Shown: positions 7,809 through 21,910 of the stretch, in pieces
Numbering within the stretch: position 1 is the first letter of the stretch
Layout: each line of letters begins with the position of its first letter
Assembly: GCF_000016385.1 (NCBI RefSeq)
Contig: NC_009376.1
Location: forward strand, 1,972,179 to 2,004,178
From: Pyrobaculum arsenaticum DSM 13514
GTDB taxonomy: Archaea > Thermoproteota > Thermoprotei > Thermoproteales > Thermoproteaceae
Direction: 5' to 3'
DNA length: 32,000 bases
Program-made: the position numbers and the translations under genes
Notes under the pieces: model-generated
What the model was told of the DNA's origin: nothing
Database searches by the model: none
What the model saw: the letters and a program-made list of their open reading frames with translations, nothing else

Positions 7809-8846
7809 TTATCTGCGGGCTGTGGCCCTTAGCTTCTCCAAGGCTTGTGGTACGTAGTATTTGTTTAGTATGTAGTCAACTACGTCTTTTGTGCCTTGGC
7901 AGTTTGCTGTGGACATCTCTGCAATTGGTGAAAATAGCTCCCGCGCTTTTTTCACCTCCTCTTCGGTGGCTATGTCGACTTTGTTCAGCACAGCTACGGC
8001 GGGGGCGGGGAAACTCTCCCTAATCTCCCTCCAGAGGTTTAGTTGCGTGTCCAGGGAGTAGCCGCTATGCGGGGTGGGGTCGACTATGAAGAGTATGGCG
8101 CCGGCTAGGTGTTTCAACGCGAGTACGGCTTGCCGCTCTATTTGGTTCCGCTCTGAGAGCGGCCGGTCGAGGAGGCCCGGCGTGTCGATGACCTGTACCT
8201 TGTCCCCCCTCAGCACGATGTGGCCGAGGTGTATCTGCTTAGTGGTGAAGGGGTACTCGGCCACTTCTGGCTTAGCGGTGGAGACGCAACGGACGAAGCT
8301 GCTCTTACCCACATTGGGCGCGCCGGCCACTACAATTGTGAAGAGATTTGGGTCAATGGCTGGGAGCTTTCGTAAAAATAGGACTATTTCTCTCATCTTG
8401 TCTAATTCGGGTTTTAAGTCGTTAAGCAGGTCTATGATGCGCGCCTTGTACATCCTCTTAGCTTCGAGGATGCCCTTCTTGTCGGGCGCCGTGCGGACTA
8501 CTGTAATTGCCTCCTTGGCGATGGCCCGGATAGCCACATGCGCATTCCCCACCTTGGCCACCACGTGCTTGTAGTTCTGGGCCCCGAAAACCACGTCTAT
8601 AAGCTCCCGGTAGAAGGGGTGGAGCTTGTCTAAAAACGGCATTCTTAAAGCCATTTCTCTGAGCGTGGTGGCGATGGTTTTTCCTGATGTTACAATTCGC
8701 CTTATTTCCAGCCTTTTCTGCCTCACAAACGCGGGCTCCGCCTCGGAGCCTCTTGCCTCTTCTCTCCCGTACGCGGCTAGAAACATTGAGATAAGCTCAT
8801 CTGCCGAGTAGATGTACGGCAACTTCGCCTTGTCTACAACCTCCAC
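7809..8846 (-). CDS. NOG1-type GTP-binding protein
   Basis: G1 is GAPNVGKSSFV, G3 is DTPGLLDR and G4 is NKVD. A long helical N-terminal domain precedes them, as in archaeal NOG1/HSR1-related GTPases. Confidence 0.85.
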   Translation of the reverse strand: MEVVDKAKLPYIYSADELISMFLAAYGREEARGSEAEPAFVRQKRLEIRRIVTSGKTIATTLREMALRMPFLDKLHPFYRELIDVVFGAQNYKHVVAKVGNAHVAIRAIAKEAITVVRTAPDKKGILEAKRMYKARIIDLLNDLKPELDKMREIVLFLRKLPAIDPNLFTIVVAGAPNVGKSSFVRCVSTAKPEVAEYPFTTKQIHLGHIVLRGDKVQVIDTPGLLDRPLSERNQIERQAVLALKHLAGAILFIVDPTPHSGYSLDTQLNLWREIRESFPAPAVAVLNKVDIATEEEVKKARELFSPIAEMSTANCQGTKDVVDYILNKYYVPQALEKLRATARR

Positions 8847-9984: not shown

Positions 9985-10314
9985 TCTCTTCCCGAATATG
10001 CACAGCTAAACAACCCATAGGCGGCTTGAGCCATGGATCCTATTCCTCATCATGAGGTTGAGCAGTGGAGGTTTAGGCGGCTTGACAGCGACATGCGCCT
10101 TCACTTTATCACAACCCATGTACTTACCACGTAGCGACAGTAGGCGTCACTTACAATACAGTAGGTAAACGCGGCGTCGGGGACTGGCAACAACTCTTAG
10201 GACCAGATGTGGACGCCGAACAAACGGCGAGTTTGACGATACCGGAAGGCGAGAGGCGGACAGTCAAAACTCGGAGGCGGGCATGCCGGCGCGGCGCAAG
10301 CGCCGTGGGTGGGC

Positions 10315-11361
10315 CTATCTGCTGTAGCCTACTCCGTCTACTTCTAGTACATATCTTGCCGCCTGTTTTTCCACCTTGAACTTCACTGGCAAGAACTGCT
10401 CCACGATGTAGATGTTTGTCTTGAGGTGCATAGTCTCTTCTGATGTGCTCAGCCTGCTCCTCCCGTCGGCCAGTGCCATGTACACAACTGCCATGTCGGC
10501 CATGTGGGGGTCCAACGTGGCGCCGGTTTTAAGCACGGCGGCAAGCTTCTCGGCGGCTTCGCGGCCAACTACCTCGGCGGGCTTTCCCTTCTCTCCTAAT
10601 GAGTCCCCGCCTACGGTGCTTCCGCTTTCCGAGTAGGCCCAGAGGACAACACCGCTGCCGGGGCCAAGGCCGTCGGCCCGCACCTCCGTTGATATCTCGG
10701 CTCTGTACCCCAGCTTTGCCAAGACTTCGGCGGCCGCCCTAGCCTGCCTCTCCGCCACGTGGCTCGGGAGATTTACGGCATGGGATATCCCGCGTATTTC
10801 CAGTACCTTCCCGAACTCTTCTAAACTCACGGGTGAGAGCTTTTTCACCGGCTCTACTCTCAGCACCGCCCTCCCCCCTCCTTTGGGGTAGTGGCCACGC
10901 CTTATAAGCTCTATCTCCACCCTTGCGCCGAATAGGGATAAGACCTTTGCGAATACAAACCGCATATAGTCGATGGGAGGCGACCACGACACGTCCGTGC
11001 CGCCGGAGATGGCTATTCGGGTGGGGCACGGGGCGAACAGCAAAACCGGGGCGAGGGTCTGGACAACTAGGGAGATGCTACCAGCAGTGCCTATGTCTAT
11101 GTCGAAGGACCCACACTTAATGTCCCTGGGCTTGAAGAACAGCCTCGTGGAGCCCTTAACGGCTCCCTCCACTTCGGCGTCTGTAAGCAAGGCGGCGGCC
11201 CTCACGCCGGTGAGGTGCTGCGGCTGGAGCCCCGGGTTCGCCCTCTTAGCCCGTATGTTTATTATCTCCACAGGCTTGCCCAAGAGAGCGGATAAGGCAA
11301 TTGACGTCCGCAAAATTTGGCCTCCGCCCTCCCCGTAGGAGCCGTCGATCCGGACAACCAC
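10315..11361 (-). CDS. rtcA: RNA 3'-terminal phosphate cyclase
   Basis: N-terminal [22 protein letters not shown] is the RtcA signature. I moved the start to the in-frame GTG at 11361 because the listed ATG at 11457 lies beyond the shared TATA box and inside psmB. Confidence 0.9.
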
Positions 11362-11385
11362 GTCTCGTTCTAGGAACGTGATATA

Positions 11386-11393
11386 TTTATAAA
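11386..11393. promoter_or_regulatory. Palindromic TATA box shared by divergent rtcA and psmB
   Basis: TTTATAAA is its own reverse complement. Its near edges lie about 20 nt (psmB ATG 11414) and about 24 nt (rtcA GTG 11361) from the two start codons. Confidence 0.55.
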
Positions 11394-11413
11394 TGAGAAG
11401 TGTGGCGAAGCCC

Positions 11414-12025
11414 ATGGGAGAGGAGGTGCAGATTGGGGCAACTGCAGTTGGCATCAAGGCGAAAGATGGGGTTGTCCTAGCCGCTGAGAAGCGGGTCTCG
11501 TACGGGTTCTACACTCTCAGCTCCGCGGGGAGAAAAGTATTCGTAATCGACGACAAGTTGGCTATAGCGTCGGCAGGCATAATTGCCGATATGCAGTCCC
11601 TGGCCCGGATCGTTAAGATCAACGCCAAGGCGTATGAACTGGAGACGAGGAAGAAGCCAACTGTCAGGTCGATGGCTAAACTGCTCTCGGTGATTATGTT
11701 TAGCAGGAGGTATATGCCGTTTTTCGCAGAGGTGCTAGTAGGTGGCGTAGACGAAGAGGGTAGCCATCTAATCGTGATGGATCCCCTCGGCAGTTTGATC
11801 GAGGACAACTACGCCGCCTTGGGCACCGGCGCTAAACTCGCCATCTCCGTGCTGGACACGGGCTACAGGGAGGACATAACTCTTCAGGATGCTAAGAAAC
11901 TCGCGGTGAAGGCTCTGAAAGCGGCAATTGAAAGAGACCCTGTCTCGGGGGGCGGCATAGATCTGGTATTGATTGACCAGACAGGTGCAAAGGAGGAGGA
12001 GGTCAAAGTACAGCTACTGATATAG
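11414..12025 (+). CDS. psmB: Proteasome subunit beta
   Basis: [20 protein letters not shown] and the overall Ntn-hydrolase beta-subunit pattern. The upstream ATG at 11393 overlaps the TATA box itself, so ATG 11414 is preferred. Confidence 0.9.
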
Positions 12026-12086
12026 CAGGACAGATTGGATAGCTACCTCTGTTATACAGCTTCTAAAAAGAGAAGAAAAACAGGAG

Positions 12087-12986
12087 TTATTGACCCTTTA
12101 GTTTGGATATCTTGTTTATAAGTATCGGCACTATTTTGTATAGATCCTCCACGACGCCATAATCGGCGTTTTGGAATATCGGTGCGGAGGGGTCGTTGTT
12201 TATTGCGGCTATGATTCTGCTCTCCAATATGCCGGCTATGTGCTGGGGCTGTCCGGATATCCCTATGGCGAGGTACAATTTGGGCTTTACTTTTTTACCC
12301 GATAGGCCGACCCAGTGCTCCTCCGGTAGCCACTTGAGGTCGGCGGCGATGGGGCGGGAGCACCCTACTTGGCCGCCCATGATCTTGGCCAGTTCGAAGG
12401 CCATCTGCAAGTCCTCCTTCTTCTTAAAGCCTCTGCCCACTGAGACGATTATCTCCGCCTCCTCCAGCTTCACGGCCCCTCTGGCCTTCTCCTCAACTGA
12501 CACTATCCTCGTCTTGGGCGTAGTGTCCAGCTGGAGCTTCTCTACAGATGTCTGTACCGCCGGCGGCTCTCCTTGGAATCTGCCAGGCGGAACAGTGACG
12601 ACGACAGGGAGCGGGACCTCTATCGTAGCCACCGCCTTGTTTCCGAAGACGTACCTCTCCGCCTTGAGAGATCCGCCCTCTACTCGGAGGGAGGTCGCGT
12701 CTACTATTAGCTCTGCGCCGAGCCTCTGGGCGAGGAGGCCGCCCACAGTCTTGCCGTTTTTAGTAGATGGCAACAACACGACGTCTACGCCTTGCGCAAC
12801 CCTCGATGCTGCCTCGGCAACGGCCTCCGGTAACCTTACATCTACATTTGCCACGACCACCCTATGCGCCTTGCCCTTGATCCCCTCTGCCTCGCCCTCG
12901 TTGAAGACCAGGGCTACCACTTCCCCGCCAAGTGTTGATGCTACGTAGAGTAGCTCCTTGGTGGGGTATACTACCAGCGTCTTCAT
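12087..12986 (-). CDS. etfA: Electron transfer flavoprotein subunit alpha
   Basis: C-terminal FAD-binding signature PKLYLAIGISGQPQHIAG. Overlaps the etfB stop by 4 nt. Confidence 0.9.
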   Translation of the reverse strand: MKTLVVYPTKELLYVASTLGGEVVALVFNEGEAEGIKGKAHRVVVANVDVRLPEAVAEAASRVAQGVDVVLLPSTKNGKTVGGLLAQRLGAELIVDATSLRVEGGSLKAERYVFGNKAVATIEVPLPVVVTVPPGRFQGEPPAVQTSVEKLQLDTTPKTRIVSVEEKARGAVKLEEAEIIVSVGRGFKKKEDLQMAFELAKIMGGQVGCSRPIAADLKWLPEEHWVGLSGKKVKPKLYLAIGISGQPQHIAGILESRIIAAINNDPSAPIFQNADYGVVEDLYKIVPILINKISKLKGQ

Positions 12987-13753
12987 ATCACTCCCTCCTG
13001 CTTTAGGTATTGTATGAGCTTCTCCGCTTTTTCTTCAGGCGTCCCGTCCTTAATCACAACCTTCTTTCTCTGCATCAACAACGGCCTATAGGCCGCCGAC
13101 ACCCTAGGCTCCACGGTTATACCAAGGTCGGCAAGGGTTAGCTTGTTGATCGGCTTTTTCATGGCCGCCCTTATTGCCAGGAGGGTGGGTATCCTGGGCT
13201 GGTTTATCTCCCTCGTCACTGATACAACTGCGGGGAGGGGCACCTCCACCACCTCTACGTGGTCTTCCAGATCGCGCTTCGCCACCAGCTTTCCGCCCTC
13301 CACCTTAAGCTCCCTGACGTAGGTGACCACCGGCCAGCCCAACTCGGCGGCTACCCTCGGCGGTATCTGCCCCGTGTAGTTGTCCACAGTGGCCTCGCCG
13401 GCGAGTACCAAGTCTGCGCCCACCTTTTTCACCACCGCGGCAATCGCCTTAGCCGTGGCAGCGTGGCTGGCGTTTATCAACTTCTCGTCGGCTACTAGGT
13501 AGGCCTCGTCTAGCCCCATCGCCAACGCCTCCCTCAACACGTTCTCAGCCTCCTGTATCCTCCTCTGCAACGGGCCCCATTTTAAGACAGTTACGCCATA
13601 TGCCTTGTCTTGGCCCTTCAGCTTAACAGCCTCCTCCACCGCGTTTCTGTCTATGTCGCTTATCTTTAGCGGGGTCTCCTCCACCACCACCGTGTCCCTC
13701 ACCCGGAGCTGGCTAGTGTCAAGAGCTGTCTTCATGAGTACAGCTATTTTCAT
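12983..13753 (-). CDS. etfB: Electron transfer flavoprotein subunit beta
   Basis: N-terminal MKIAVLMK..D and overall similarity to ETF beta. Translationally coupled to etfA. Confidence 0.85.
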   Translation of the reverse strand: MKIAVLMKTALDTSQLRVRDTVVVEETPLKISDIDRNAVEEAVKLKGQDKAYGVTVLKWGPLQRRIQEAENVLREALAMGLDEAYLVADEKLINASHAATAKAIAAVVKKVGADLVLAGEATVDNYTGQIPPRVAAELGWPVVTYVRELKVEGGKLVAKRDLEDHVEVVEVPLPAVVSVTREINQPRIPTLLAIRAAMKKPINKLTLADLGITVEPRVSAAYRPLLMQRKKVVIKDGTPEEKAEKLIQYLKQEGVI

Positions 13754-13944
13754 AGCCGCCTCTTTTTGAGCACTTTTTTAAGGTGAATATTGCCAATAGT
13801 AGAAATCTTTCAATACAACTCGCGGCGTGGCAACACCGGAGGCCCATGCCTGCTGAGTTAAGATAAGGCCCAGCCTCCTCTGTCTGTGACGGCCTACGAG
13901 ATAACCCAATCCGGTAGCGTCTTGCTCGCAAAGCGACGCTACAG

Positions 13945-14307
13945 TTATTCGCAGAATAGGCCGTAGTCGTCGGCTAGAACCACGCGGTGTTTTAAGGCCT
14001 CGCGCCACCAAGGTTTTTCCAGAGCCTTCGCCGCCTCTTCCGGCGTCCAGCAGATGGCCTCCACCCTCGGCGGGGCGTCGAGCAACGCAACGCAACGGGT
14101 CACGAAGTCAGTGCCTCAAAACCGCTCGGATACAATTATCACGTCGATGTCGCTCCACAAATTGAAGTCGCCCCTGGCGTACGAGCCGTAGAGCACGGCT
14201 GTTAGTTTGCCCCACCTCGCCCTCAGCGCCTCCACGTACCTCTTTACTCCCTCAATTACCTCCTCCCGCTCCCGCGTCCTTTTTCTTATTATCTCCTCTA
14301 TCGACAT
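13945..14307 (-). pseudogene. Minimal nucleotidyltransferase (MNT, antitoxin-type) interrupted by an in-frame TGA
   Basis: The NTase core GSYARGD..SDIDVIIV is followed by SERF and a TGA at 14116-14118. The same frame then stays open for 56 more codons (GTDFVTRCVALLDAPPRVEAICWTPEEAAKALEKPWWREALKHRVVLADDYGLFCE) to a TAA at 13945-13947, which looks like the normal MNT C-terminal half. Confidence 0.7.
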
Positions 14308-14351
14308 GGGGAACAGCCCTTAACCCAGCCGATTACCTGCTCGGCGCACTC

Positions 14352-14714
14352 CTACGCCTTAGCCGCCTCCTCTTCCGTATACCGCTCGTAGGGGACGCCC
14401 TCGGTCAAGGCATCTGGGTACCTAGGCGTTAGGCACATCTTATCCAGATAGCCGACGCAGAACCTCAGCTCCCCGCCAGTTGTGGGGCACAGCCCAGCCA
14501 GCTCGTTAAACAGCGCAACTAAGTTGTGGCCAAACGCAGGCCGCCCTAGCGCCCGTAGCAACGCCCTAGTTGCAAACTCAGCGGCTTGTTGCGCCTTGAA
14601 GCAGGCCCATGAGTAGGACCCGATGTCCAAGTCAGCCCGTATAGACTGTAAAGTATGCTCAGCCTGCCTCATCCACCTCCAGTACTCATAGCAGACCAGC
14701 ACAATCCTTCCCAT
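14352..14714 (-). CDS. HEPN domain protein (toxin partner of MNT)
   Basis: WRWMRQAEHTLQSIRADL followed by an Rx4H motif (GRPAFGH). The start is ambiguous between 14750, 14714 and 14672. TATATAAAA at about 14722-14730 argues against 14750. Confidence 0.75.
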   Translation of the reverse strand: MGRIVLVCYEYWRWMRQAEHTLQSIRADLDIGSYSWACFKAQQAAEFATRALLRALGRPAFGHNLVALFNELAGLCPTTGGELRFCVGYLDKMCLTPRYPDALTEGVPYERYTEEEAAKA

Positions 14715-14799
14715 TTGCAGTTTTATATACAACACACGGCTGGGCTTCAACTCTTCTTGAACACGCTATGAAGAAGGCCTCGCTTCTGTGGATGTGGGG
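14665..14799. repeat. Direct repeat DR1, copy A: diverged nop2 3' end plus the real HEPN 5' end
   Basis: 14767-14799 is identical to 16753-16785 (33/33, checked base by base). Colinear blocks of weaker similarity continue leftward to about 14665: CCGTGT, TGTGCTGG and AGTACT.GAGGTGGA. Confidence 0.8.
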
Positions 14800-14810
14800 A
14801 TACACATGCA

Positions 14811-14963
14811 TTAACGTATGATATAAACTAAGAAGACAATTGCCGACGCCGTAACAGCCGCTGCAACGGCTAATTGGAGCGAGCTTTTTACAAATTTATA
14901 GACCTCGTTATATACATACGCCGCCAAACCGGCTAACACGCCGACGGCAACCACGTCAAACAC
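14811..14963 (-). CDS. Unannotated 50-aa hydrophobic peptide with two predicted TM helices
   Basis: Hand translation gives (V/M)FDVVAVGVLAGLAAYVYNEVYKFVKSSLQLAVAAAVTASAIVFLVYIIR then TAA. The GTG start lies 2 nt after the stop of the upstream ORF. It falls below the 60-aa cutoff of the ORF track. Confidence 0.3.
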   Translation of the reverse strand: MFDVVAVGVLAGLAAYVYNEVYKFVKSSLQLAVAAAVTASAIVFLVYIIR

Positions 14964-14964
14964 A

Positions 14965-15321
14965 CTATGCTATACGGGCTAATTTTATAAGCTTTAACTT
15001 ATCAAGCCTATATCCTCTTGTAGCTATGTAGTAGCAGACTTCGCACGGCATTTTGAAATCTTTGTTCACCTCAATGCCGTGTTCTTTTAATATAGCAAGA
15101 GGGCCGGCATATCTCAATGCAAGAACCAACGCGTTTCTCCTAATTCTCTTTACTATATCTACAAGCGAGTCTTGCGAGATATTGCCCACCTTAAAAAACC
15201 ACTGTGCCTCACTCTGAGTTATTGGATGGCCGCAACAATACATAGCATCACCATTAGGAAGGATGGTCAGCCTAGCCCCAGCTTTCGCCATAAAGTTTTT
15301 TGCGAATTTTTGAGCTTTCAT
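14965..15321 (-). CDS. Degenerate SPASM/twitch-like Cys-containing ORF (possible radical-SAM accessory-domain remnant)
   Basis: KAGARLTILPNGDAMYCC resembles the C-x-AG...PdGdv.pC segment of SPASM domains, but K replaces the first Cys. It has a CEVC pair but lacks the remaining Cys residues. Only about 17 codons are open upstream, so no radical-SAM core is attached. About 42% GC. Confidence 0.35.
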   Translation of the reverse strand: MKAQKFAKNFMAKAGARLTILPNGDAMYCCGHPITQSEAQWFFKVGNISQDSLVDIVKRIRRNALVLALRYAGPLAILKEHGIEVNKDFKMPCEVCYYIATRGYRLDKLKLIKLARIA

Positions 15322-15832
15322 GACGATGGCCCAGCACAGGTGGAGGAAACACAGATTTTCGCTCGTTATCCTTTACCTAATTTCCGTCGGCGTAATAGCT
15401 TTAGGGATCTTCCACTTCTATTTGCACAGCGTAAATCCTCCAAAAGAGCCTATGGCGCGCCTAGGGCCTTATCTGGTCATAGGAACGGGGCTGGCGGCGA
15501 TGGCTACTATCCCTTTGTTGGAGCCTGTCCGCGCTGTTGTGAGGCGCGGCGAGATTATCCTCAAGACTCGTTGGCTTACTAAGAGAATCACAGGCTTCAG
15601 GGTGGTGAAGAAGTTCTCCACGTCGGAGCTCTTGAACTACGTCTACATGTGCCCCGTGGGGTGGCGCCTCGACCTCTGGTCTCTTTACGGCATCTGCTCC
15701 ACTGCGTTTGGGAGGGCGGTCGCGTTTTCTACGCCTTCCTGTTCCGACGAGTGGATAGTGGTAGAGGCAGACAGCAAGCGGTATGTAATATGTTGCGAAG
15801 AGGAGGATAGGGAGATATGCGCAGGTTTATAG
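15320..15832 (+). CDS. Membrane protein with two N-terminal TM helices and a Cys-rich C-terminal domain (hypothetical)
   Basis: Hydrophobic segments FSLVILYLISVGVIALGIF and YLVIGTGLAAMATIPLL are followed by a soluble part containing 6 Cys. Overlaps the next ORF by 16 nt. Its ATG overlaps the divergent ATG of 14965..15321 (CATG). Confidence 0.5.
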   Translation: MTMAQHRWRKHRFSLVILYLISVGVIALGIFHFYLHSVNPPKEPMARLGPYLVIGTGLAAMATIPLLEPVRAVVRRGEIILKTRWLTKRITGFRVVKKFSTSELLNYVYMCPVGWRLDLWSLYGICSTAFGRAVAFSTPSCSDEWIVVEADSKRYVICCEEEDREICAGL

Positions 15833-16557
15833 CGGTGACCTTCGGCTTAGGGTGGGCTTTTCAGTTTGCCCATCCCACCTCCTACTTCTGGCTGGCCGCC
15901 GCTATGTGGGCGCCTGCACTGGGCGCGCTTGCTGAGGGGTTTAGGCCCCCGCCCCCGGCGCTGACCGCCGGGAGGAGGATAAGTTACTGGAAGTCTGTGT
16001 GGCCGATTGCGCTGTGGGTCGCCCTATTGGTGGCCTCCACGTTGCCATTTCAGCCCGTCCAGCCCCAGGCGGCGCCGAGCCACTTAATGTACTTGCTCAC
16101 AGCACCCTTTATGCCCGCAGTGGTGGCATTTATAGGCGCCTTTGGCGAGGAGTACGGCTGGCGGGGCTATTTACTGCCAGCCCTCGCCCAGAGGCTTGGC
16201 TACTTCAAGGCGTCTCTCATGGTGGGGGTTGTGTGGGGTTTTTGGCACACGCCGGCTATCGGCTATGAGTACGGCTGGTTTTGGCGCGTTGAGGGCGTGC
16301 TCCTCTTTGTCCTTCCCACTATTCTCCTCTCCCTACTCCACACAGCGGCTTATTTACAATACGGCGTATGGGGGGCCGCATTGCTACATGGGGCCGTCAA
16401 CTCGTGGGCGCCTACGTACTTTCTTCTGTATCCACAGCTCTTAGATGAGAGGTGGCTCTGGGGACCTGTAGGTCTTCAAGGCGTTGCAACCCTCATACCC
16501 GTGGCTTGGATAGTCTGGAAGATGTACGCACGCAGTGTTGACAAAACGCCGCCCTGA
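15817..16557 (+). CDS. CPBP family intramembrane glutamic endopeptidase (CAAX protease / Abi family)
   Basis: All three family motifs are present: GEEYGWRGYLLP (EExxxR), FWHTP (FxxxH) and HGAVN (HxxxN), in a polytopic membrane protein. Confidence 0.85.
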   Translation: MRRFIAVTFGLGWAFQFAHPTSYFWLAAAMWAPALGALAEGFRPPPPALTAGRRISYWKSVWPIALWVALLVASTLPFQPVQPQAAPSHLMYLLTAPFMPAVVAFIGAFGEEYGWRGYLLPALAQRLGYFKASLMVGVVWGFWHTPAIGYEYGWFWRVEGVLLFVLPTILLSLLHTAAYLQYGVWGAALLHGAVNSWAPTYFLLYPQLLDERWLWGPVGLQGVATLIPVAWIVWKMYARSVDKTPP

Positions 16558-16660
16558 CGCCCAGAATAGCGCTCACGGCGCGAGCCCCGCCGCATGTCGC
16601 GCCTCGAGGCAGGCCTAAGCGCAGGTCCTTATAATTGGCGCATGTAGGCCACGGAGTAGA

Positions 16661-16785
16661 CCCCCCGTCCACCTCTAGTACTTGTCGCGGCCCAGCACAG
16701 TTCCTCTATTTAAGACACGGGTGGCGTACGCCTATCTTTTCCTCAAGCGCGATATGAAGAAGGCCTCGCTTCTGTGGATGTGGGG
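16661..16785. repeat. Direct repeat DR1, copy B: real nop2 3' end plus a decayed HEPN 5' fragment
   Basis: The 33-nt core at 16753-16785 encodes PHIHRSEAFFI of nop2. The adjacent 16661-16752 aligns in blocks with the HEPN promoter and first codons, reading TVLGRDKY*RW against IVLVCYEYWRW. Confidence 0.8.
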
Positions 16786-17976
16786 GAAGGTTCTCCCGCC
16801 GACGCCGGGCGTGTACGACGGGGCGAGGTCAGGATGGGGCTTTTCCGCCTCTGCGCCGGCAGACGCCGCCACCTCTTCGCCTTCTTGTGGAAGGATGCTA
16901 CAGACGGCGTACACCACCTCCTCTGCCAGCGCCAATGCGTTTTTGATGAGGGCCTTCTGCACGGCGGAGTACTTAGGCGCCTCCTCGACCCGGGGGTATA
17001 TCTTTACGGCGGGCTCCTTGGTGAACGCCCCGCTGGAGGTGCAAGGCGCGTCTAGAAGCGCCTTGTCGAACTTCCTTGTCTTTAAGACCCGAGAGTCTGC
17101 CCTGACGACCTCTACAAAGTCCCCTGCTCCTAGGTTTTTCAGGAGGTGCCTCATCCTCGCAACGCGCTTCGCCGAGAGGTCCACGGCAACGATTTTGGCT
17201 CTTCCCTCCGCTAGCTGGGCTATTAGGCTGGTCTTCATCCCCGGCGCCGCGGCGAGGTCGATTATCCTGTCGCCAGGCTCTGGCCTAAGCGAAAGCACGG
17301 CGTATATTGAGGCCAGGTCTTGGGGAACGGCCACAAACCGCCTCACGGCCTCTAGGTACTGGACAGGCCTCTTAGCTGATTTAAGCAACACGGCGAAGGG
17401 AATTTTAGGATGGGGCTCCACCTCGGCCTCGGCCTCCAACAGCCTCAACGCCTTGTCCACGTCCGCCTTCAGCGTGTTTATCCTCAGCCAAATCCAGGTG
17501 TGATTCCCCGCTTCTAGCAACCTCTCCACTTCCTCCGGCGGGAAATGCGACAGCAGTGTCGACACTATGTTGGGGTGATAGCTGTACTTCACCGAGAAGT
17601 ATCTGGCGCGATCCTCCCTTAACTCCTCCAACGCCGCCATTACGTGGTCCGGCTTTGTCAGAGCCCTTTTTAACAGCCGTTTCCGCACGCTGTAAACCAT
17701 GTCTTTGTTGTAGAGGAGAGAGTCTGCCCTAAAAATAAACCACGCCTTAGCTATGGCTTTTGCGCCAGAAGAGCCGAACATCTTCGAAGCGGCGAATTGG
17801 AGAAAATAGTAATGGCGCACAGCGTCGTAGACCACGTCGTAAAATACCTTGAAGCTATCTAACTCACGCCACCCCCTCTTTACCTTTTGAAAAGCGTAGT
17901 CAAGAGTAAGACCTTTGCTTATTTCGTAGAGAACCTTGGCAGTGAAGGATATCAGCTCTCCAGGAGTCCACTTCAC
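16732..17976 (-). CDS. NOL1/NOP2/Sun family RNA cytosine-C5 methyltransferase
   Basis: SAM-binding DLAAAPGMKTS and catalytic DAPCTSSG motifs. The start is set to the in-frame GTG at 17976, which overlaps the upstream stop (GTGA). The listed ATG at 18054 would overlap the upstream gene by 82 nt. Confidence 0.9.
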   Translation of the reverse strand: MKWTPGELISFTAKVLYEISKGLTLDYAFQKVKRGWRELDSFKVFYDVVYDAVRHYYFLQFAASKMFGSSGAKAIAKAWFIFRADSLLYNKDMVYSVRKRLLKRALTKPDHVMAALEELREDRARYFSVKYSYHPNIVSTLLSHFPPEEVERLLEAGNHTWIWLRINTLKADVDKALRLLEAEAEVEPHPKIPFAVLLKSAKRPVQYLEAVRRFVAVPQDLASIYAVLSLRPEPGDRIIDLAAAPGMKTSLIAQLAEGRAKIVAVDLSAKRVARMRHLLKNLGAGDFVEVVRADSRVLKTRKFDKALLDAPCTSSGAFTKEPAVKIYPRVEEAPKYSAVQKALIKNALALAEEVVYAVCSILPQEGEEVAASAGAEAEKPHPDLAPSYTPGVGGRTFPHIHRSEAFFISRLRKR

Positions 17977-18479
17977 GTGAGAAATACCAAATCGGCCTCC
18001 AGCTTCGCCAAGTCTATAAGGGCGTAGCTCGACCTGCCGGTTAGGCAACCGCACAGCTCCCCGGGGTTCACCACCAGCGTCCTCCCCCTCCTCTCCAGCG
18101 AGGCTTGGTGGGTGTGGCCGTAGATCACCACGTCGTAGAGGTCGGACTCAGCCAACGCCCTCAGCAACACGGGCGATGTGCCGTGGTACACCGCTATTTT
18201 CCTGCCGCTGACCTCCAGCTCCGCGGCGTCGCCAGCGATTTCAACGCCGTATTTCCGCGCCGTTTCTAGAAAATAGGGTCTCTCCCCCTCGTTGTTGCCC
18301 CATACGCCAACTATCCTTACCCCCTCGCCCACCGCCTCCCTTAAAAACCTAGCGGCAAATGGCGACACCCAGTCTCCGGCATGCAGGATCAGCTTAACCC
18401 CCCTGCGCCTCGCCTCCTCACCAACCCGCCTAATAGCTATGACGTTGTCATGGCTGTCTGAAATGGCAACCACTAGCAT
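17973..18479 (-). CDS. Metallophosphoesterase, YfcE/MJ0936 family
   Basis: Motifs VVAISDSHDN, HAGDW, GNNE and GHTH. Confidence 0.85.
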   Translation of the reverse strand: MLVVAISDSHDNVIAIRRVGEEARRRGVKLILHAGDWVSPFAARFLREAVGEGVRIVGVWGNNEGERPYFLETARKYGVEIAGDAAELEVSGRKIAVYHGTSPVLLRALAESDLYDVVIYGHTHQASLERRGRTLVVNPGELCGCLTGRSSYALIDLAKLEADLVFLT

Positions 18480-18737
18480 AATGCGGCAAGTAGACTAGTT
18501 AAAAAACTCTTCTCCTGGACAGGCAGGCGCCGACGCTACGAGTAACGGGATGGGCAAGTAGCCCGCGGCGGGGACGCAATGTTGTTTAAACCTCCGCCGA
18601 GATCTCTGGCTCTATCGGCTCTTCATGTGCGCTGCGACTAGCGCGCCGCTCTTAGGGGAGTACTAGAACTCGGCGCCGTTGGCCCTAATGGTGTAGGGTT
18701 TTACCCCGAGGTCAACCGCGGGGCGCCGCCGACTGTC

Positions 18738-19277
18738 CTAGTCAACCTGTACGCCTAGAACCTTCTGGAAGAATTCTACTGCCTCCTCCCTGGTGACGAG
18801 CTGTTTTTTGCCTACTTTACTCCTCCTCCTTCTCCTCAGTTGCACCCTGAGCCCCGGCTTTGCTAGCTTCACGCAGACGTCCATGCCCCATATTCCAACA
18901 GCTGGGTCGTACTTGACGCCGGGTAGGAGGATGTGCTCCTTGATGCCGAAGCAGACGTTCCCCCTGTCGTCGAAGCTGGTCCTCTTTACGCGGTTGTTCA
19001 CCGCCTGCAACGCCCTCATTAAGAAGTTGACTGCCTGGTCTCTCCTCAGCGTGACCATCACGCCTATCGGCTCCCCCTTCCTAATGCCGAAGTCCTTAAT
19101 CGACCGCTTCGCCCTCCTCCTAGAGGGCTCTGCCCCCGTTAGTTCTTTTAACAGTTCAGCCGCCTTTTCTAGCCTCTCGCCGCCGGTCCCAACTCCGATG
19201 TTCACGACGACCTTCTCGATGAAGATCCTCTGCATTGGGTGCTGTTTTACGAGCACCAGCTCCTTCCAGCTGGGCAT
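18738..19277 (-). CDS. rpl5: 50S ribosomal protein L5 (uL5)
   Basis: RIFIEKVVVNIGVG and overall uL5 similarity. An A/T-rich box (AAAATTTTAAAAA) lies about 25 nt upstream. Confidence 0.93.
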   Translation of the reverse strand: MPSWKELVLVKQHPMQRIFIEKVVVNIGVGTGGERLEKAAELLKELTGAEPSRRRAKRSIKDFGIRKGEPIGVMVTLRRDQAVNFLMRALQAVNNRVKRTSFDDRGNVCFGIKEHILLPGVKYDPAVGIWGMDVCVKLAKPGLRVQLRRRRRSKVGKKQLVTREEAVEFFQKVLGVQVD

Positions 19278-19371
19278 AGGCGTCTAGCTTTGGCTGTTTT
19301 TAAAATTTTTAGAACACCAGCGGCACCTCTGGCCCCTTCGCCGCCACGGCCTCTGCGGGCTTGAAGAGGCG
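19203..19371. repeat. Direct repeat DR2, copy 1: diverged PAC2 3' fragment plus the real rpl5 promoter and 5' end
   Basis: 19309-19329 is identical to 20418-20438 (21/21). 19330-19371 encodes LFKPAEAVAAKGPEVPLVF*, against ILKPAEAMAPARREVPLVF* in the real gene, at about 70% nt identity. Confidence 0.8.
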
Positions 19372-20301
19372 GAACAATTAGCGGAACTGGCGAGGTAGCT
19401 TTGCGGCCTAGGTCAGTTTGTGAGACTGGGCCATAATCTAAAGCCTCACGCATAGGCCCAGGAGCACCCCTGAGATGTGCCCCCTTAGCGATATATTCAT
19501 TATACCGGGCCATGACTAGAAGTCTGTCAAGAGTCAACATCTAAGTATTGCCTCTCTTTGCCTTTCAACTAGGCGCAACCCAATTGCTTTGCCCCATAAT
19601 AAAACATTATGCCGTCTAGGTGGCTCAGCGCACCGCTGCGGCCACGAGGTTGATCCCGCGCCTCACATATGTCAAACTCTCTTTCACCTCTTCAAGACTT
19701 AGTCTCCCCTCGTGAAACCCTTCTACGTGTAGAAACCAAGCCTCCCGTGCGGCTAGGCGAAATTCTATGCCGAATTTCTTCTCCAACTTCCTAATGGCGG
19801 AGAAAAAAGTAGCGGCCCTCCACCGACCCTCTCGTTCTGCTAGCCTCGCCTCTTCGAGACCCAGATAAATCGCGGCGGCCTTAACCGCCTCCTCAAAGGC
19901 CTTATATGCCTTTTCAGAGGCCTGTACGGGATCCTCTAATTTCTCCGCCTCTTCTAAATACCGCATTGCCAACTCTAAATGGGCCTTTGCCTCTTCAGCC
20001 GGGTCTGCCCCCATGGCCTTTGATAGGGCTGAAATGATGACATATTCCACGTCTATTCCCCTCTTCCTGGCCTCTGCCATTATGTTCTCCACGTAAAGAT
20101 CTTGGTCTTTTTTAAATACTAGCGGCGCCCTTCCCAAAACCCCGGTCAAAGGCGTCGGCTAGGAACTGCTCAGGTGATGCGCGAAGGCGCTAGGCGAGTG
20201 GTCACTGCAGCCTAGCAGATGCGTTAAAAAATGTCCTCGCCCCGCCGCTCGCTGTGCGGAGATGCCGTCCTGAGGGGCGTTTGGATCGGCGGCAAATTCT
20301 G
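19372..20301. mobile_element. Accessory cassette 2 (PaREP1 cargo) inserted at the PAC2/rpl5 junction (no recombinase gene)
   Basis: Unique DNA bounded by the two DR2 copies. Contains only the PaREP1-like ORF and flanking non-coding sequence. Confidence 0.55.
19625..20149 (-). CDS. PaREP1-family protein (HEPN-related helical protein)
   Basis: AHLELAMRYLEEAEKLEDPVQASEKAYKAFEEAVKAAAIYLGLEE ... REGRWRAATFFSAIRKLEK ... AWFLHVEGFHEGRLSLEEVKESLTYV matches my recollection of the Pyrobaculum PaREP1 repeat-protein family. TTG start. Confidence 0.7.
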   Translation of the reverse strand: MTGVLGRAPLVFKKDQDLYVENIMAEARKRGIDVEYVIISALSKAMGADPAEEAKAHLELAMRYLEEAEKLEDPVQASEKAYKAFEEAVKAAAIYLGLEEARLAEREGRWRAATFFSAIRKLEKKFGIEFRLAAREAWFLHVEGFHEGRLSLEEVKESLTYVRRGINLVAAAVR

Positions 20302-20480
20302 GCACGCCGACCTTTCTAAGGACTTCCATTGGGTGCATGAGTCCTCTTCTAAACGAGGAAAACGGCCCAACCACCCGGGGACAGCTGGCGAGGCCTCTCC
20401 AATGGGTCTAAGAAAAATTAGAACACCAGCGGCACCTCGCGCCTCGCCGGCGCCATGGCCTCCGCCGGCTTTAAGATGGC
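20302..20480. repeat. Direct repeat DR2, copy 2: real PAC2 3' end plus a decayed rpl5 promoter/5' fragment
   Basis: The 21-nt core is at 20418-20438. 20302-20417 aligns colinearly with the rpl5 upstream region and first ~25 codons through the blocks TAGAC, CCAGCTG, CTCGT, GCACCCAATG and AGAAAGGTCGGCGTG. Confidence 0.75.
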
Positions 20481-21239
20481 CTCTATGTTCTTCTCGATGA
20501 GGAAGGCATACCTAGTTGCGTGCTCTTGCAACTTTGCCGTGTCTATTTGGATATCTGCGAGCTTAGCCACAGCGTTTATTAGCTTCAACGCGGCGCCTAC
20601 GTCAGGGCCGACCCGCCCGACAAGGTCGTTGAGTATAAGCATCACGTCGCGGTGGGTGGCGATTTTGCCGCTGTCTACCAGCCTCTTTATGGCGGTGAGT
20701 AGCTTAGACTCGGCGATTATGAGTGCGCCGTCTATGCTCCTGCCGAGCACTGCGTCTAGGTATGCCCCCTCGAGTCCGGTCACGGTGGCCTCTTTTATAG
20801 GCTCGAAGCCGTACTGCTTAAACTTCTCCACTAGGCCCTCCTCCGTGACGAAGTAGACGTTTTCACTTTCCTTCTCGCCGGCAGCTGGCATGGCCGATAG
20901 GCAGACCACGAGTTTTACCTTGTTTTCCTCGGCCCAATCTAGGACCTTGTGGATGAACTCAGCGTAGATCTGCGGCGGTATGGGAACGTGTTGCCTAATG
21001 GCAAGGATGCCCGCCTCTTTCGAGTAGAACAGTCTGTGAGGCAGTTTCGCCGCGCCGTTGACGACGGCGATTACTGGAGGCATCTCCGTGATTTTAATTG
21101 CCCCTATCTCCTCCATCTTAAGCGCATCTATTAGATACTCAACTGCTATGACACCTGCCAGCGAGGGCTCGGGGCAAGCCATCACGAGGATGTTCTTTTT
21201 GTCCCGCGGCAGTCCGCTGATCTTTACTTCGAGACGCAT
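20418..21239 (-). CDS. PAC2 family (proteasome assembly chaperone-like) protein
   Basis: N-terminal pattern NILVMACPEPSLAGVIAVEYLIDAL ... LPHRLFY and a length of about 270 aa resemble archaeal PAC2/PbaA-PbaB-like proteins. The call is from resemblance only. Confidence 0.65.
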   Translation of the reverse strand: MRLEVKISGLPRDKKNILVMACPEPSLAGVIAVEYLIDALKMEEIGAIKITEMPPVIAVVNGAAKLPHRLFYSKEAGILAIRQHVPIPPQIYAEFIHKVLDWAEENKVKLVVCLSAMPAAGEKESENVYFVTEEGLVEKFKQYGFEPIKEATVTGLEGAYLDAVLGRSIDGALIIAESKLLTAIKRLVDSGKIATHRDVMLILNDLVGRVGPDVGAALKLINAVAKLADIQIDTAKLQEHATRYAFLIEKNIEAILKPAEAMAPARREVPLVF

Positions 21240-21313
21240 GTGCCTGGCTACACATCATGTATTAAATATTTCTGCCGTTGTCTAAATTTTTAAAGCTCTT
21301 CACAGTACGCGCC

Positions 21314-21910
21314 ATGGGTAAGGCGGTTGCTTTCCACGGATACAGAAGCTCCCCGGAAAACATCGGCTGGCTTATAGCCCCGCTCCGCGAGGCGGGGTTC
21401 AACGTCGTGATGCCGTTTATTAGAGATGTGGATGACGGCTACGAGGAGGGGCTGAAGGAGCTACCTGCGGACGTGGTGGCGGGCCACAGCATGGGGGGCA
21501 CAGTGGCGCTCCTACTGGCGGCCCGGAACCCCGGCAGTGTTAAATGTGTAATTGCGGTGGCTTCCCCCGTCGATAGGAGGTTACAACTGCAGTACCTGCT
21601 TCAGTCGGAGGATCCTTACCTGAAAAAGTTGGCTAACCAACTCGCCTCCCTTGGAAATAAGCTGGAGCAGACGTCACCCTCCCGCTTTATTGGCAACGGG
21701 ATGCCGCCTGTGCTCTACATAAGAGGCTCCGAGGATCGGGTCGTGCCCAGGACCCACGTCGACATCCTCGCCGGGCTGTCAGACCGCTTTAACTTCCCCC
21801 TCGAGGTCGTTGAGATAGAGGGCATGGCGCATAGCCCACAGAGAGAGGACCACGTGGCCGCCGTTGCTGATGCGGTGAAAAAGTTTGTGGCAAAGTACTG
21901 CGCCCCCTAG
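21314..21910 (+). CDS. Alpha/beta hydrolase
   Basis: Nucleophile elbow GHSMGG and a late His (GMAHSP). ATG 21314 is preferred over TTG 21278 because AAATTTTTAAAG sits about 20-25 nt upstream of it. Confidence 0.75.
   Translation: MGKAVAFHGYRSSPENIGWLIAPLREAGFNVVMPFIRDVDDGYEEGLKELPADVVAGHSMGGTVALLLAARNPGSVKCVIAVASPVDRRLQLQYLLQSEDPYLKKLANQLASLGNKLEQTSPSRFIGNGMPPVLYIRGSEDRVVPRTHVDILAGLSDRFNFPLEVVEIEGMAHSPQREDHVAAVADAVKKFVAKYCAP

Follow-up and report, generated by a model that had tools for sequence, protein, structure and literature searches.

Two junctions between conserved genes are present twice in the 32,000-nucleotide (nt) stretch of the Pyrobaculum arsenaticum DSM 13514 genome analyzed here (hereafter the window). 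One links the end of a gene for an RNA methyltransferase of the NOL1/NOP2/RsmB family (NOL1) to the start of a HEPN gene; the other links the end of a PAC2-family gene to the start of the gene for ribosomal protein L5. We judge it somewhat probable that both junction duplications are scars of events in which the host's recombination machinery joined in homeologous DNA, by homology at one end and imprecisely at the other, with decay thereafter. As such, they represent a known kind of recombination scar, and a clear archaeal example of it, rather than a new class of mobile element. An earlier reading of this DNA (the original prediction) had proposed an element class of its own; we find no indication of one, as known host processes and decay account for the structures. 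The locus, with gene order PAC2–L5–phosphoesterase–NOL1–(variable)–ETF, contains two gaps between conserved genes in which accessory genes turn over, and the occupants are mostly HEPN-superfamily, toxin–antitoxin-like genes: PaREP1 in one gap and a HEPN-MNT pair in the other. Genes of the locus lie on the minus strand, with the exception of the CPBP and TM170 genes.

Self-BLAST of the whole 32 kb window returned only two non-trivial matches, both direct, both at gene 3' ends (E ~1e-10), and the claim that gene junctions are duplicated as direct repeats is thereby confirmed. Repeat 1 pairs 14764-14799 with 16750-16785 (36 nt, 35/36 identical, E 5e-10). Its right copy lies within the 3' end of the intact NOL1 gene (16732-17976; Pfam PF01189, E 4e-33; a 414-amino-acid (aa) model in L054, the close relative GCA_013414235.1). 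Its left copy lies just upstream of the HEPN promoter, in a pseudo-NOL1 3' end that comprises the core and a diverged tail (14751-14799) and stands directly upstream of the HEPN TATA box (14729-14720). With gaps, the homology takes in the NOL1 tail, the intergenic sequence and about 190 nt of HEPN 5' sequence, reaching 16541 on the right side. The HEPN copy there, a truncated pseudogene that with the intergenic sequence fills 16541-16731 in alignments to the window and L006/L010 HEPN genes, carries an in-frame stop and indels and runs up to the stop of the CPBP gene at 16541-16557. Identity is 97% in the core and about 64% in the arm (Fisher p = 3e-5); counted as mismatches, the contrast is 1/36 in the core against 59/166 in the HEPN arm (p = 3e-5), and under a neutral model of equal age, one mismatch or fewer in 36 nt has p ~0.005. 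Because of this contrast, it appears either that the arms had already diverged at the time of duplication or that the core has been homogenised since. Upstream of the core there is no homology, and the edge at 14799/14800 is sharp. One boundary of repeat 1 is thus a non-homologous join, at which about 32 nt (14800-14831), between the 3' end of a small open reading frame (ORF) and the pseudo-NOL1 core, are related to neither partner. This stretch is the imprecise (illegitimate) junction.

Repeat 2 pairs 19309-19367 with 20418-20476 (49/59 identical, 83%; E 1.5e-10), and the last 21 nt, 19309-19329 in the left copy, are identical. The right copy is the last 59 nt of the intact PAC2 gene (20418-21239; proteasome assembly chaperone-like, Pfam PF09754, E 3e-31) and encodes its C-terminus (..EVPLVF and stop). 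The left copy is a pseudo-PAC2 3' end whose stop codon abuts the B recognition element (BRE) and TATA box of L5 at 19305-19296 (promoter and gene, 18738-19308; gene, 18738-19277; Pfam PF00281/PF00673). Homology ends at about 19367-19370. On the other side, the functional PAC2 stop is followed by some 120-140 nt (20417 to about 20300) that can be aligned with the L5 promoter and about 95 nt of L5 coding sequence. This decayed pseudo-L5 (20300-20417), which opens the spacer that we call X, gives z = 3.9 in global alignment to 19308-19184, a score reached by 1/1000 dinucleotide shuffles, and z = 4.3 against the L5 gene of L013, with negative controls not significant; it shares GCACCCAATG and AAGGTCG with L5 at collinear offsets. 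If this moderately supported extension is counted, the arms of repeat 2 would measure about 170-180 nt, and the 125-180 nt originally proposed for the arms is about right. At both repeats, it is the outer copies that remain in use while the inner ones decay, as had also been predicted.

Comparison with related loci (L001, P. oguniense TE7; L012, P. islandicum; L015, a Thermoproteus metagenome-assembled genome (MAG); and others given by number only) reveals what was added at the NOL1-HEPN site. The window is 99.94% identical to L054 across 14.8 kb and about 97% identical to P. oguniense. L006 and L010 have the order NOL1-HEPN-MNT-CPBP(-)-TM(-)-x75-AsnRS-like (the last an asparaginyl-tRNA-synthetase-like gene), with a single junction and no duplication. 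Between the window and L006, identity is 87% for CPBP-TM, 92.6% for the x75 piece and 91% for NOL1, compared to 79% for HEPN-MNT; the window HEPN-MNT block is thus 79% identical to that of L006/L010 within flanking DNA of 87-92%. In the window, HEPN-MNT (14116-14714; HEPN 14352-14714, MNT remnant 14116-14307) has moved behind x75, is preceded by 36 nt of NOL1 3' end, and is joined via the filler of about 32 nt; the truncated pseudo-HEPN alone adjoins NOL1. The first of two proposed cassettes had been described as small accessory cargo, although "cargo" and "insertion" are readings of the sequence and not observations. Because its contents stand in the same order beside NOL1-HEPN-MNT in L006/L010 without duplication, the CPBP gene, TM170, a radical-SAM remnant and the small ORF are instead resident neighbours and not imports. 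The extra piece at this site is a second, diverged block consisting of 36 nt of NOL1 and HEPN-MNT, and what remains in the inner HEPN arm is a stump of a once complete HEPN-MNT pair that a deletion removed. The event took place after the split from L006 and before that from P. oguniense. An alternative history, in which an L006-like block was inserted before a pre-existing NOL1-HEPN2-MNT2 junction, is equivalent and yields the same product. HEPN1 and HEPN2 are mutual closest relatives in the database, at 83% aa identity versus <=76% for all others, which points to a partner allele from within the clade. The proposed involvement of a diverged host junction from a related genome is supported. 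The search for the partner allele itself returned the L006/L010 type (83% aa) and homologues at <=76% from other Thermoproteales in unrelated contexts, and a metagenome scan gave only homologues at <=74%, likewise in unrelated contexts. Sliding identity to L006 showed no switch, and hence no crossover, in the window's own NOL1, and neither window cassette showed one.

At the PAC2-L5 site, the allelic series in relatives is fuller. The junction is empty, with a spacer of 35-52 nt, in four lineages (L002, L004, P. islandicum L012 and L013), where the empty sites that the original prediction had called for are found; this is probably the ancestral state. L003, L005 and L016-L018 have a compact PAC2-PaREP1-L5 arrangement without a duplicated PAC2 end. 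The long form, comprising PAC2, pseudo-L5, spacer X, PaREP1, spacer Y, pseudo-PAC2 and L5, occurs in the window, P. oguniense and L006. In the window, PaREP1 (19625-20092) is followed by a short second pseudo-L5 start (19555-19624) that is collinear, in a five-way alignment (the local score alone being weak), with the L003/L005 sequence running from the PaREP1 stop through the L5 promoter to the L5 start, including the invariant GCCTAGTTG (window 19574-19566). This alignment suggests that PaREP1 came together with a piece of another genome's L5 junction. Spacer X, whose remainder covers 20150-20299, and spacer Y (19368-19554, spanned by a 97-aa ORF with no family match) differ by about 30% between the window and L006, and spacer X overall is about 70% identical to L006 against 88-90% for the backbone; both spacers evolve at a rate close to neutral. 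Neither spacer Y nor the second half of X had a match in any fetched locus by blastn or tblastx, or in Pfam.

PaREP1 is a clear member of its family (PF05942, E 6e-26; 91 bits against a curated cut-off of 24.4). PaREP1 and PaREP8 have been placed in the HEPN-T clade of the HEPN superfamily (PMC3710099), and we take the link between PaREP1 and HEPN from that work; our own profile–profile comparison of PaREP1 with HEPN recovered only weak similarity (E 0.0017, probability 15%). Homologues 74-81% identical to the window's PaREP1 occur at the same site (L003/L016) and at another site (L015). The closest one outside the locus, at 81% aa identity, lies in L015 (6001-6474) between aconitase and triose-phosphate isomerase genes, with no flanking repeat. 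Because this Thermoproteus copy is closer to the window's PaREP1 than are the same-site copies of other Pyrobaculum, the comparison indicates transfer between genera. PaREP1 is thus a mobile gene, but it does not generally leave duplicated junctions, as repeat-free PaREP1 occurs in L003, L005, L016-L018 and in Thermoproteus; the suggestion that such insertions explain the spread of PaREP genes in general is not supported. The paREP genes often accompany the large indels that distinguish P. oguniense from P. arsenaticum (PMC3558965). Lineages that have the compact allele also harbor a second PaREP1-family gene of 183 aa, which abuts the NOL1 3' end on the opposite strand (L003 11335-11886; L016/L017 8821-9372), and the slot downstream of NOL1 thus holds differing HEPN-superfamily genes by lineage.

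A third insert, in sister genomes, has an identifiable donor lineage. The MAGs L052, L053, L055 and L007-L009 are 98.7-99.9% identical to the window on both sides of an insert of about 13 kb between the phosphoesterase gene and NOL1 (L053 10264-12007 and L007 1-11206, both on contig JAVYKV010000005.1), and one 152 kb contig covers the whole arrangement. At its left end are about 500 nt of unknown origin, followed by a NOL1 copy truncated at its 5' end, with 91.5% identity to L011 and 73% to the window. The middle contains a citrate synthase gene (84% to L011) and then about 10 kb with molybdopterin oxidoreductase and ferredoxin genes as well as a 738-aa ORF. At the right end is a chimeric NOL1, its 5' 340 nt foreign and its 3' 850 nt native, in which identity to the window rises from about 68% to 97-100% near 17620 (breakpoints at about 17620 and 17979 in window equivalents). 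The same identity switch is found in NOL1 of L006 and L010, the latter also with the Fer4-NOL1 arrangement, and the two NOL1 5' types and the downstream arrangements occur in all four combinations, which implies recombination between lineages. The third insert is thus bounded by diverged copies of a host gene, with no recombinase gene and with L011 as the identifiable donor lineage, and the sister genomes provide direct evidence that homeologous DNA integrates at the NOL1 locus. A donor is traceable in this case (NOL1_A, 91.5% to L011), while for the HEPN2 block of the window no closer allele was found. Self-BLAST of about 285 kb of related loci, all of them homologous regions rather than whole genomes, recovered only these junctions, the L007-type NOL1 duplication and one NOL1 fragment in L013. 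This last is a 136-nt piece of NOL1 5' sequence (12868-12997 against 8137-8272, 74%) that shares the orientation of the intact NOL1 and lies 3.6 kb downstream from it.

The near-identical cores of the repeats had been read as crossover sites embedded in diverged arms. Part of this description stands: the last 21 nt of PAC2 are identical. The NOL1 core has one mismatch, however, and hence is not perfectly identical. Across relatives, the cores are those codons of NOL1 and PAC2 that are conserved best. In the NOL1 core, which encodes FPHIHRSEAFFI, clade members have 0-1 mismatches and other Pyrobaculum 6-9. The last 21 nt of PAC2 (EVPLVF and stop) show 2-3 differences in L002, L003, L006 and L013 and 5-6 in L004 and L012; the preceding 38 nt show 13-28/38 mismatches in lineages outside the window clade and 2/38 in L006. 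Within L006, the two PAC2 core copies are 18/21 identical (3/21 differ). Between the orthologous pseudo-PAC2 copies of the window and L006 (19309-19329; L006 8642-8662), the core differs at 1/21 positions, versus 14/38 in the adjoining sequence, which is about neutral. The pseudo-PAC2 core has thus been retained after the event, whether by selection or by gene conversion from the functional copy; selection is a possibility because the core lies directly upstream of the L5 BRE/TATA, and the PAC2 end may have a role in the sequence that precedes the L5 promoter. Because conserved codons and retention after the event explain the identity, the sharp core boundary cannot be taken to mark a crossover. 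A motif common to the cores, for which the original prediction had suggested a test, is also lacking, as the NOL1 and PAC2 cores have no similarity to each other in self-BLAST. In P. oguniense, the functional NOL1 ends in ..FFIARLRKR, as opposed to ..FFISRLRKR in the rest of the clade (L001 11270-11319, 14241-14290), and its tail carries four clustered nt variants otherwise confined to that genome's own pseudo-copy; the repeat there is 45 nt long and 96% identical. This pattern suggests gene conversion from the pseudo-NOL1 into the working NOL1 in P. oguniense.

Under the reading that we prefer, DNA from a Pyrobaculum of a related lineage, carrying another version of the same spot, would have been joined into the chromosome by the host's recombination machinery. 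One end would pair homologously with a conserved gene while the other joins imprecisely nearby, a process described as homology-facilitated illegitimate recombination (HFIR); alternatively, a circularised fragment could enter by a single crossover and give the same product. With the imprecise end falling a few dozen bases inside the neighbouring gene, the gene end, the promoter and the start of the next gene would come to be present twice. In so compact a genome, where the downstream promoter touches the upstream stop, only insertions that duplicate the junction would leave both genes working, and only these would survive. The redundant copies would then decay, into the truncated pseudo-HEPN and into the pseudo-NOL1, pseudo-PAC2 and pseudo-L5 stubs, while selection (the pseudo-PAC2 end abuts the L5 promoter) and occasional gene conversion would keep the cores alike. 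The anatomy, the empty and alternative alleles, the mosaic relatives and the lack of recombinase genes are directly shown. We infer three parts of this account: the one-ended recombination step; its direction, in other words which of the blocks came in; and the selective filter, under which an insertion at PAC2-L5 or NOL1-HEPN would be tolerated solely with a duplicated junction because the promoters abut the preceding stop codons.

Several observations weigh against this account. The second part of spacer X and the whole of spacer Y could be traced to no source. With 26% divergence between its arms, repeat 2 is compatible with a duplicate that started out identical and simply decayed, because the neutral spacers X and Y themselves differ by about 30% when the window is compared with L006. 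Diagnostic sites place the pseudo-HEPN equally far from both HEPN types (16 vs 19) and do not assign it to either lineage. No genome with NOL1-HEPN2-MNT2 directly adjacent emerged from a protein search and a metagenome scan. The structures would fit either direction of each event, and either a linear, one-ended substrate or a circular one with a single crossover, and we know of no recombination genetics for Pyrobaculum.

Some of these points fit tandem duplication in situ, followed by reciprocal decay and conversion of the cores, an explanation that we consider unlikely on the whole. At the NOL1-HEPN site, the duplicated stretch would begin 36 nt ahead of the NOL1 stop and extend through x50, with x50/NOL1-36 as the sole new junction; copy 1 would have lost most of HEPN-MNT and copy 2 everything after MNT. 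At the PAC2-L5 site, a tandem duplication of about 190 nt would have opened a harmless gap into which PaREP1 was inserted later, and at both sites selection and gene conversion would have kept the cores identical. Such a history requires a single illegitimate junction, exactly that seen at 14800-14831; the repeat 2 arms fit neutral decay since before the split of the window and L006, the pseudo-HEPN is no nearer to the L006-type HEPN than to the resident HEPN2, and gene conversion between copies is suggested in P. oguniense. It must contend, however, with the 1/36 against 59/166 mismatches of repeat 1 (p = 3e-5) and the low probability of so intact a core at equal age under neutrality (p ~0.005). 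The event postdates the L006 split, yet the HEPN arms differ by about 35% and by several indels, and HEPN2-MNT2 is twice as diverged from L006/L010 as is the flanking DNA. The pseudo-NOL1 tail differences in P. oguniense are mostly synonymous (ARLR vs SRLR, four nt changes), as expected if the tail had diverged within the working gene of another lineage. Finally, the pseudo-L5 start right after PaREP1 is left unexplained.

The mechanism originally put forward, in which small recombinase-free circles carrying a diverged host junction integrate by a single crossover at the core, fares slightly worse still, and we doubt it as a general route. In its favour, a Campbell-type crossover would produce exactly this geometry, the intervals lack a recombinase gene, and empty sites exist. 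There are, moreover, two events of different age within 6 kb and a third, related structure in the sister genomes, and PaREP1 genes do move between loci and genera. A single-crossover circle would thus yield the observed product, but known host processes (HFIR, Campbell-type integration) suffice for it. The contents of the first cassette are resident genes in an order shared with duplication-free relatives, and PaREP1 stands repeat-free at the same site in other lineages and at another site in Thermoproteus. The cores share no motif, the PAC2 core pair of L006 differs at 3/21 positions, and codon conservation with constraint after the event explains core identity. In the third case, the left NOL1 copy is foreign over its full length, unlike the product of a simple single crossover, and the 285 kb or so of related loci hold no other example beyond these junctions and the one stray NOL1 fragment.

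The expectation that no integrase, transposase or inverted repeats would be found was borne out. Pfam scans detected no integrase, transposase or recombinase domain in the ORFs of 14800-16750, of 19368-20417 or of the fuller P. oguniense version, the repeat search of the window found no terminal inverted repeats at the interval ends, and there is no tRNA gene in the window. A transposon, insertion sequence or miniature inverted-repeat transposable element is ruled out by the lack of transposase and inverted repeats and by repeats that are imperfect and 36-270 nt long. IMG/VR scans with PaREP1 and TM170 found nothing that would point to a virus or provirus. Small RNA genes were considered as the duplicated unit, as Pyrobaculum C/D box small RNAs often overlap gene ends (PMC6009581); Rfam at E <= 1 returned nothing in 13500-21500, and a C/D box motif scan was empty. 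An integrase-dependent island bounded by attachment (att) sites was likewise rejected: there are no recombinase remnants; the single-junction relatives L006 and L010 still have the interior genes CPBP, TM170 and x75, and at the PAC2-L5 site, where empty sites exist, other lineages have PaREP1 with no repeat; and the duplication reaches the promoter and 5' coding sequence of the downstream gene, beyond an att core or gene 3' end. Where an integrase targets a protein-coding or tRNA gene, its att sites typically cover the 3' end of that gene and share an identical core. It is nevertheless very improbable that the repeats are attL/attR-like relics of tyrosine-recombinase-type site-specific elements that brought a replacement 3' end and have since lost the integrase, since the direct repeats over a gene 3' end with an identical core and the small accessory genes between them are outweighed by the lack of any integrase fragment in either interval or in the fuller P. 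oguniense version, by repeats that reach the 5' end of the downstream gene (not a product of att duplication), by the synteny of the first interval's interior with single-junction relatives, and by the absence of viral or IMG/VR relatives of the cargo genes.

The genes caught up in the NOL1-HEPN rearrangement show decay of their own. HEPN and MNT are adjacent genes matching PF05168 (E 4e-23) and PF01909 (E 4e-11), with the motif RPAFGH fitting Rx4-6H, and qualify as a HEPN-MNT type II toxin–antitoxin pair. Both are intact in P. oguniense (L001 14327-15096). In the window, HEPN has a CGG to TAG change (14352-14354) that leaves 120 aa of 138, and MNT an AGA to TGA change (~14116) that leaves 63 aa of 120; given these premature stops and the intact P. 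oguniense genes, the pair appears to be inactivated in the window genome. The interval between the repeat 1 copies holds, from left to right, the 50-aa small membrane ORF homologous to x75 of L006/L010 (14811-14963; 92.6% identical over 14828-14963), the C-terminal SPASM fragment of a radical-SAM gene (14965-15321; Pfam PF13186), the gene for a 170-aa membrane protein, TM170, always paired with the CPBP gene in relatives (15320-15832, plus strand), and the gene for a CPBP/Rce1-like intramembrane protease (15817-16557, plus strand; Pfam PF02517). The radical-SAM/SPASM protein, the small membrane ORF, the 170-aa membrane protein and CPBP form a conserved cluster (window 14811-16557; L001 11486-14075), possibly serving peptide maturation. 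In P. oguniense, where the Radical_SAM part is present (L001), the radical-SAM gene carries a frameshift; a deletion of about 1 kb reduces it to a 118-aa SPASM stub in the window, and in L006/L010 its last ~30 nt alone survive, fused into the start of the x75 ORF (L006 13270-13561). The asparaginyl-tRNA-synthetase-like gene found past x75 in L006/L010 is missing at that position in the window. The remaining genes listed for the locus are a metallophosphoesterase gene (17973-18479) and an ETF-beta gene (12983-13753). The ETF-beta/ETF-alpha/proteasome/RTC block is inverted in L010 (7008-10593) relative to the window (10215-13812), P. islandicum and L011.

Should the explanation by host recombination with homeologous DNA hold, these junctions would constitute natural, datable records of DNA uptake from neighbouring lineages by a hyperthermophilic archaeon without a genetic system, and compact spacing, with a promoter touching the preceding stop, would act as a filter on which insertions survive. 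The junction sequences are searchable in population metagenomes, and rates of homeologous recombination in Thermoproteales are thereby measurable. A broader proposition is that accessory genes enter tight Pyrobaculum gaps mainly through recombinase-free, host-driven homeologous integration that duplicates the promoter-bearing junction, from a substrate either linear and one-ended or circular, with HEPN-superfamily genes as the main passengers and the duplicated junctions serving as landing pads or conversion partners. We offer this tentatively, as something that is probably not so. If true, compact archaeal genomes would gain genes systematically by way of "junction-copying", and three instances would already be visible within about 10 kb of this clade.

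Among known systems, integrase islands and proviruses resemble these loci in that direct repeats include a gene 3' end, the intact gene is kept, and accessory genes lie between the repeats. Here, in contrast, there is no integrase, the repeated sequence extends past the gene end through the promoter and into the start of the following gene, arm identity is 64-83% in place of short exact att cores, and the interior of the first interval is resident. Campbell-type single-crossover integration is the standard behaviour of non-replicating plasmids, and it too places a duplicated region of homology on both sides of an insert and predicts hybrid copies. The present loci depart from it in showing no evidence of a circle, an origin or excision, and in the L007-type NOL1, the one case with a visible crossover, where only one of the two copies is a hybrid.

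HFIR has been described in Acinetobacter, Streptococcus pneumoniae, Pseudomonas stutzeri and Escherichia coli conjugation (PMC3240628; references in PMC5361080). The Pyrobaculum junctions resemble it in several respects: foreign or homeologous DNA has one homologous anchor and one imprecise join, no dedicated recombinase takes part, the insertion lies beside a conserved anchor gene with a sharp non-homologous junction, and the L007-type NOL1 contains a sharp identity switch. HFIR has been shown experimentally in bacteria only, however, whereas here it would be read from scars in a hyperthermophilic archaeon; the junctions also contain unexplained filler of about 32 nt and 180 nt, and the recipient junction is duplicated, not deleted. 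In the type VI secretion system effector–immunity arrays of Vibrio cholerae, and in the orphan arrays of Rhs and contact-dependent inhibition systems, sequential displacement of modules leaves orphans, and an HFIR-like, integrase-free mechanism has been proposed (PMC5361080). The Pyrobaculum arrays differ in being only one orphan deep, and their HEPN-MNT and PaREP1 genes stand beside unrelated housekeeping genes rather than forming the variable tips of a toxin-delivery gene. Such sequential displacement of toxin–immunity modules, leaving orphan fragments, is the closest described parallel: in both settings, toxin-type modules are replaced downstream of a conserved gene, newcomers bring along part of the conserved upstream sequence, and old modules or fragments stay behind as orphans.

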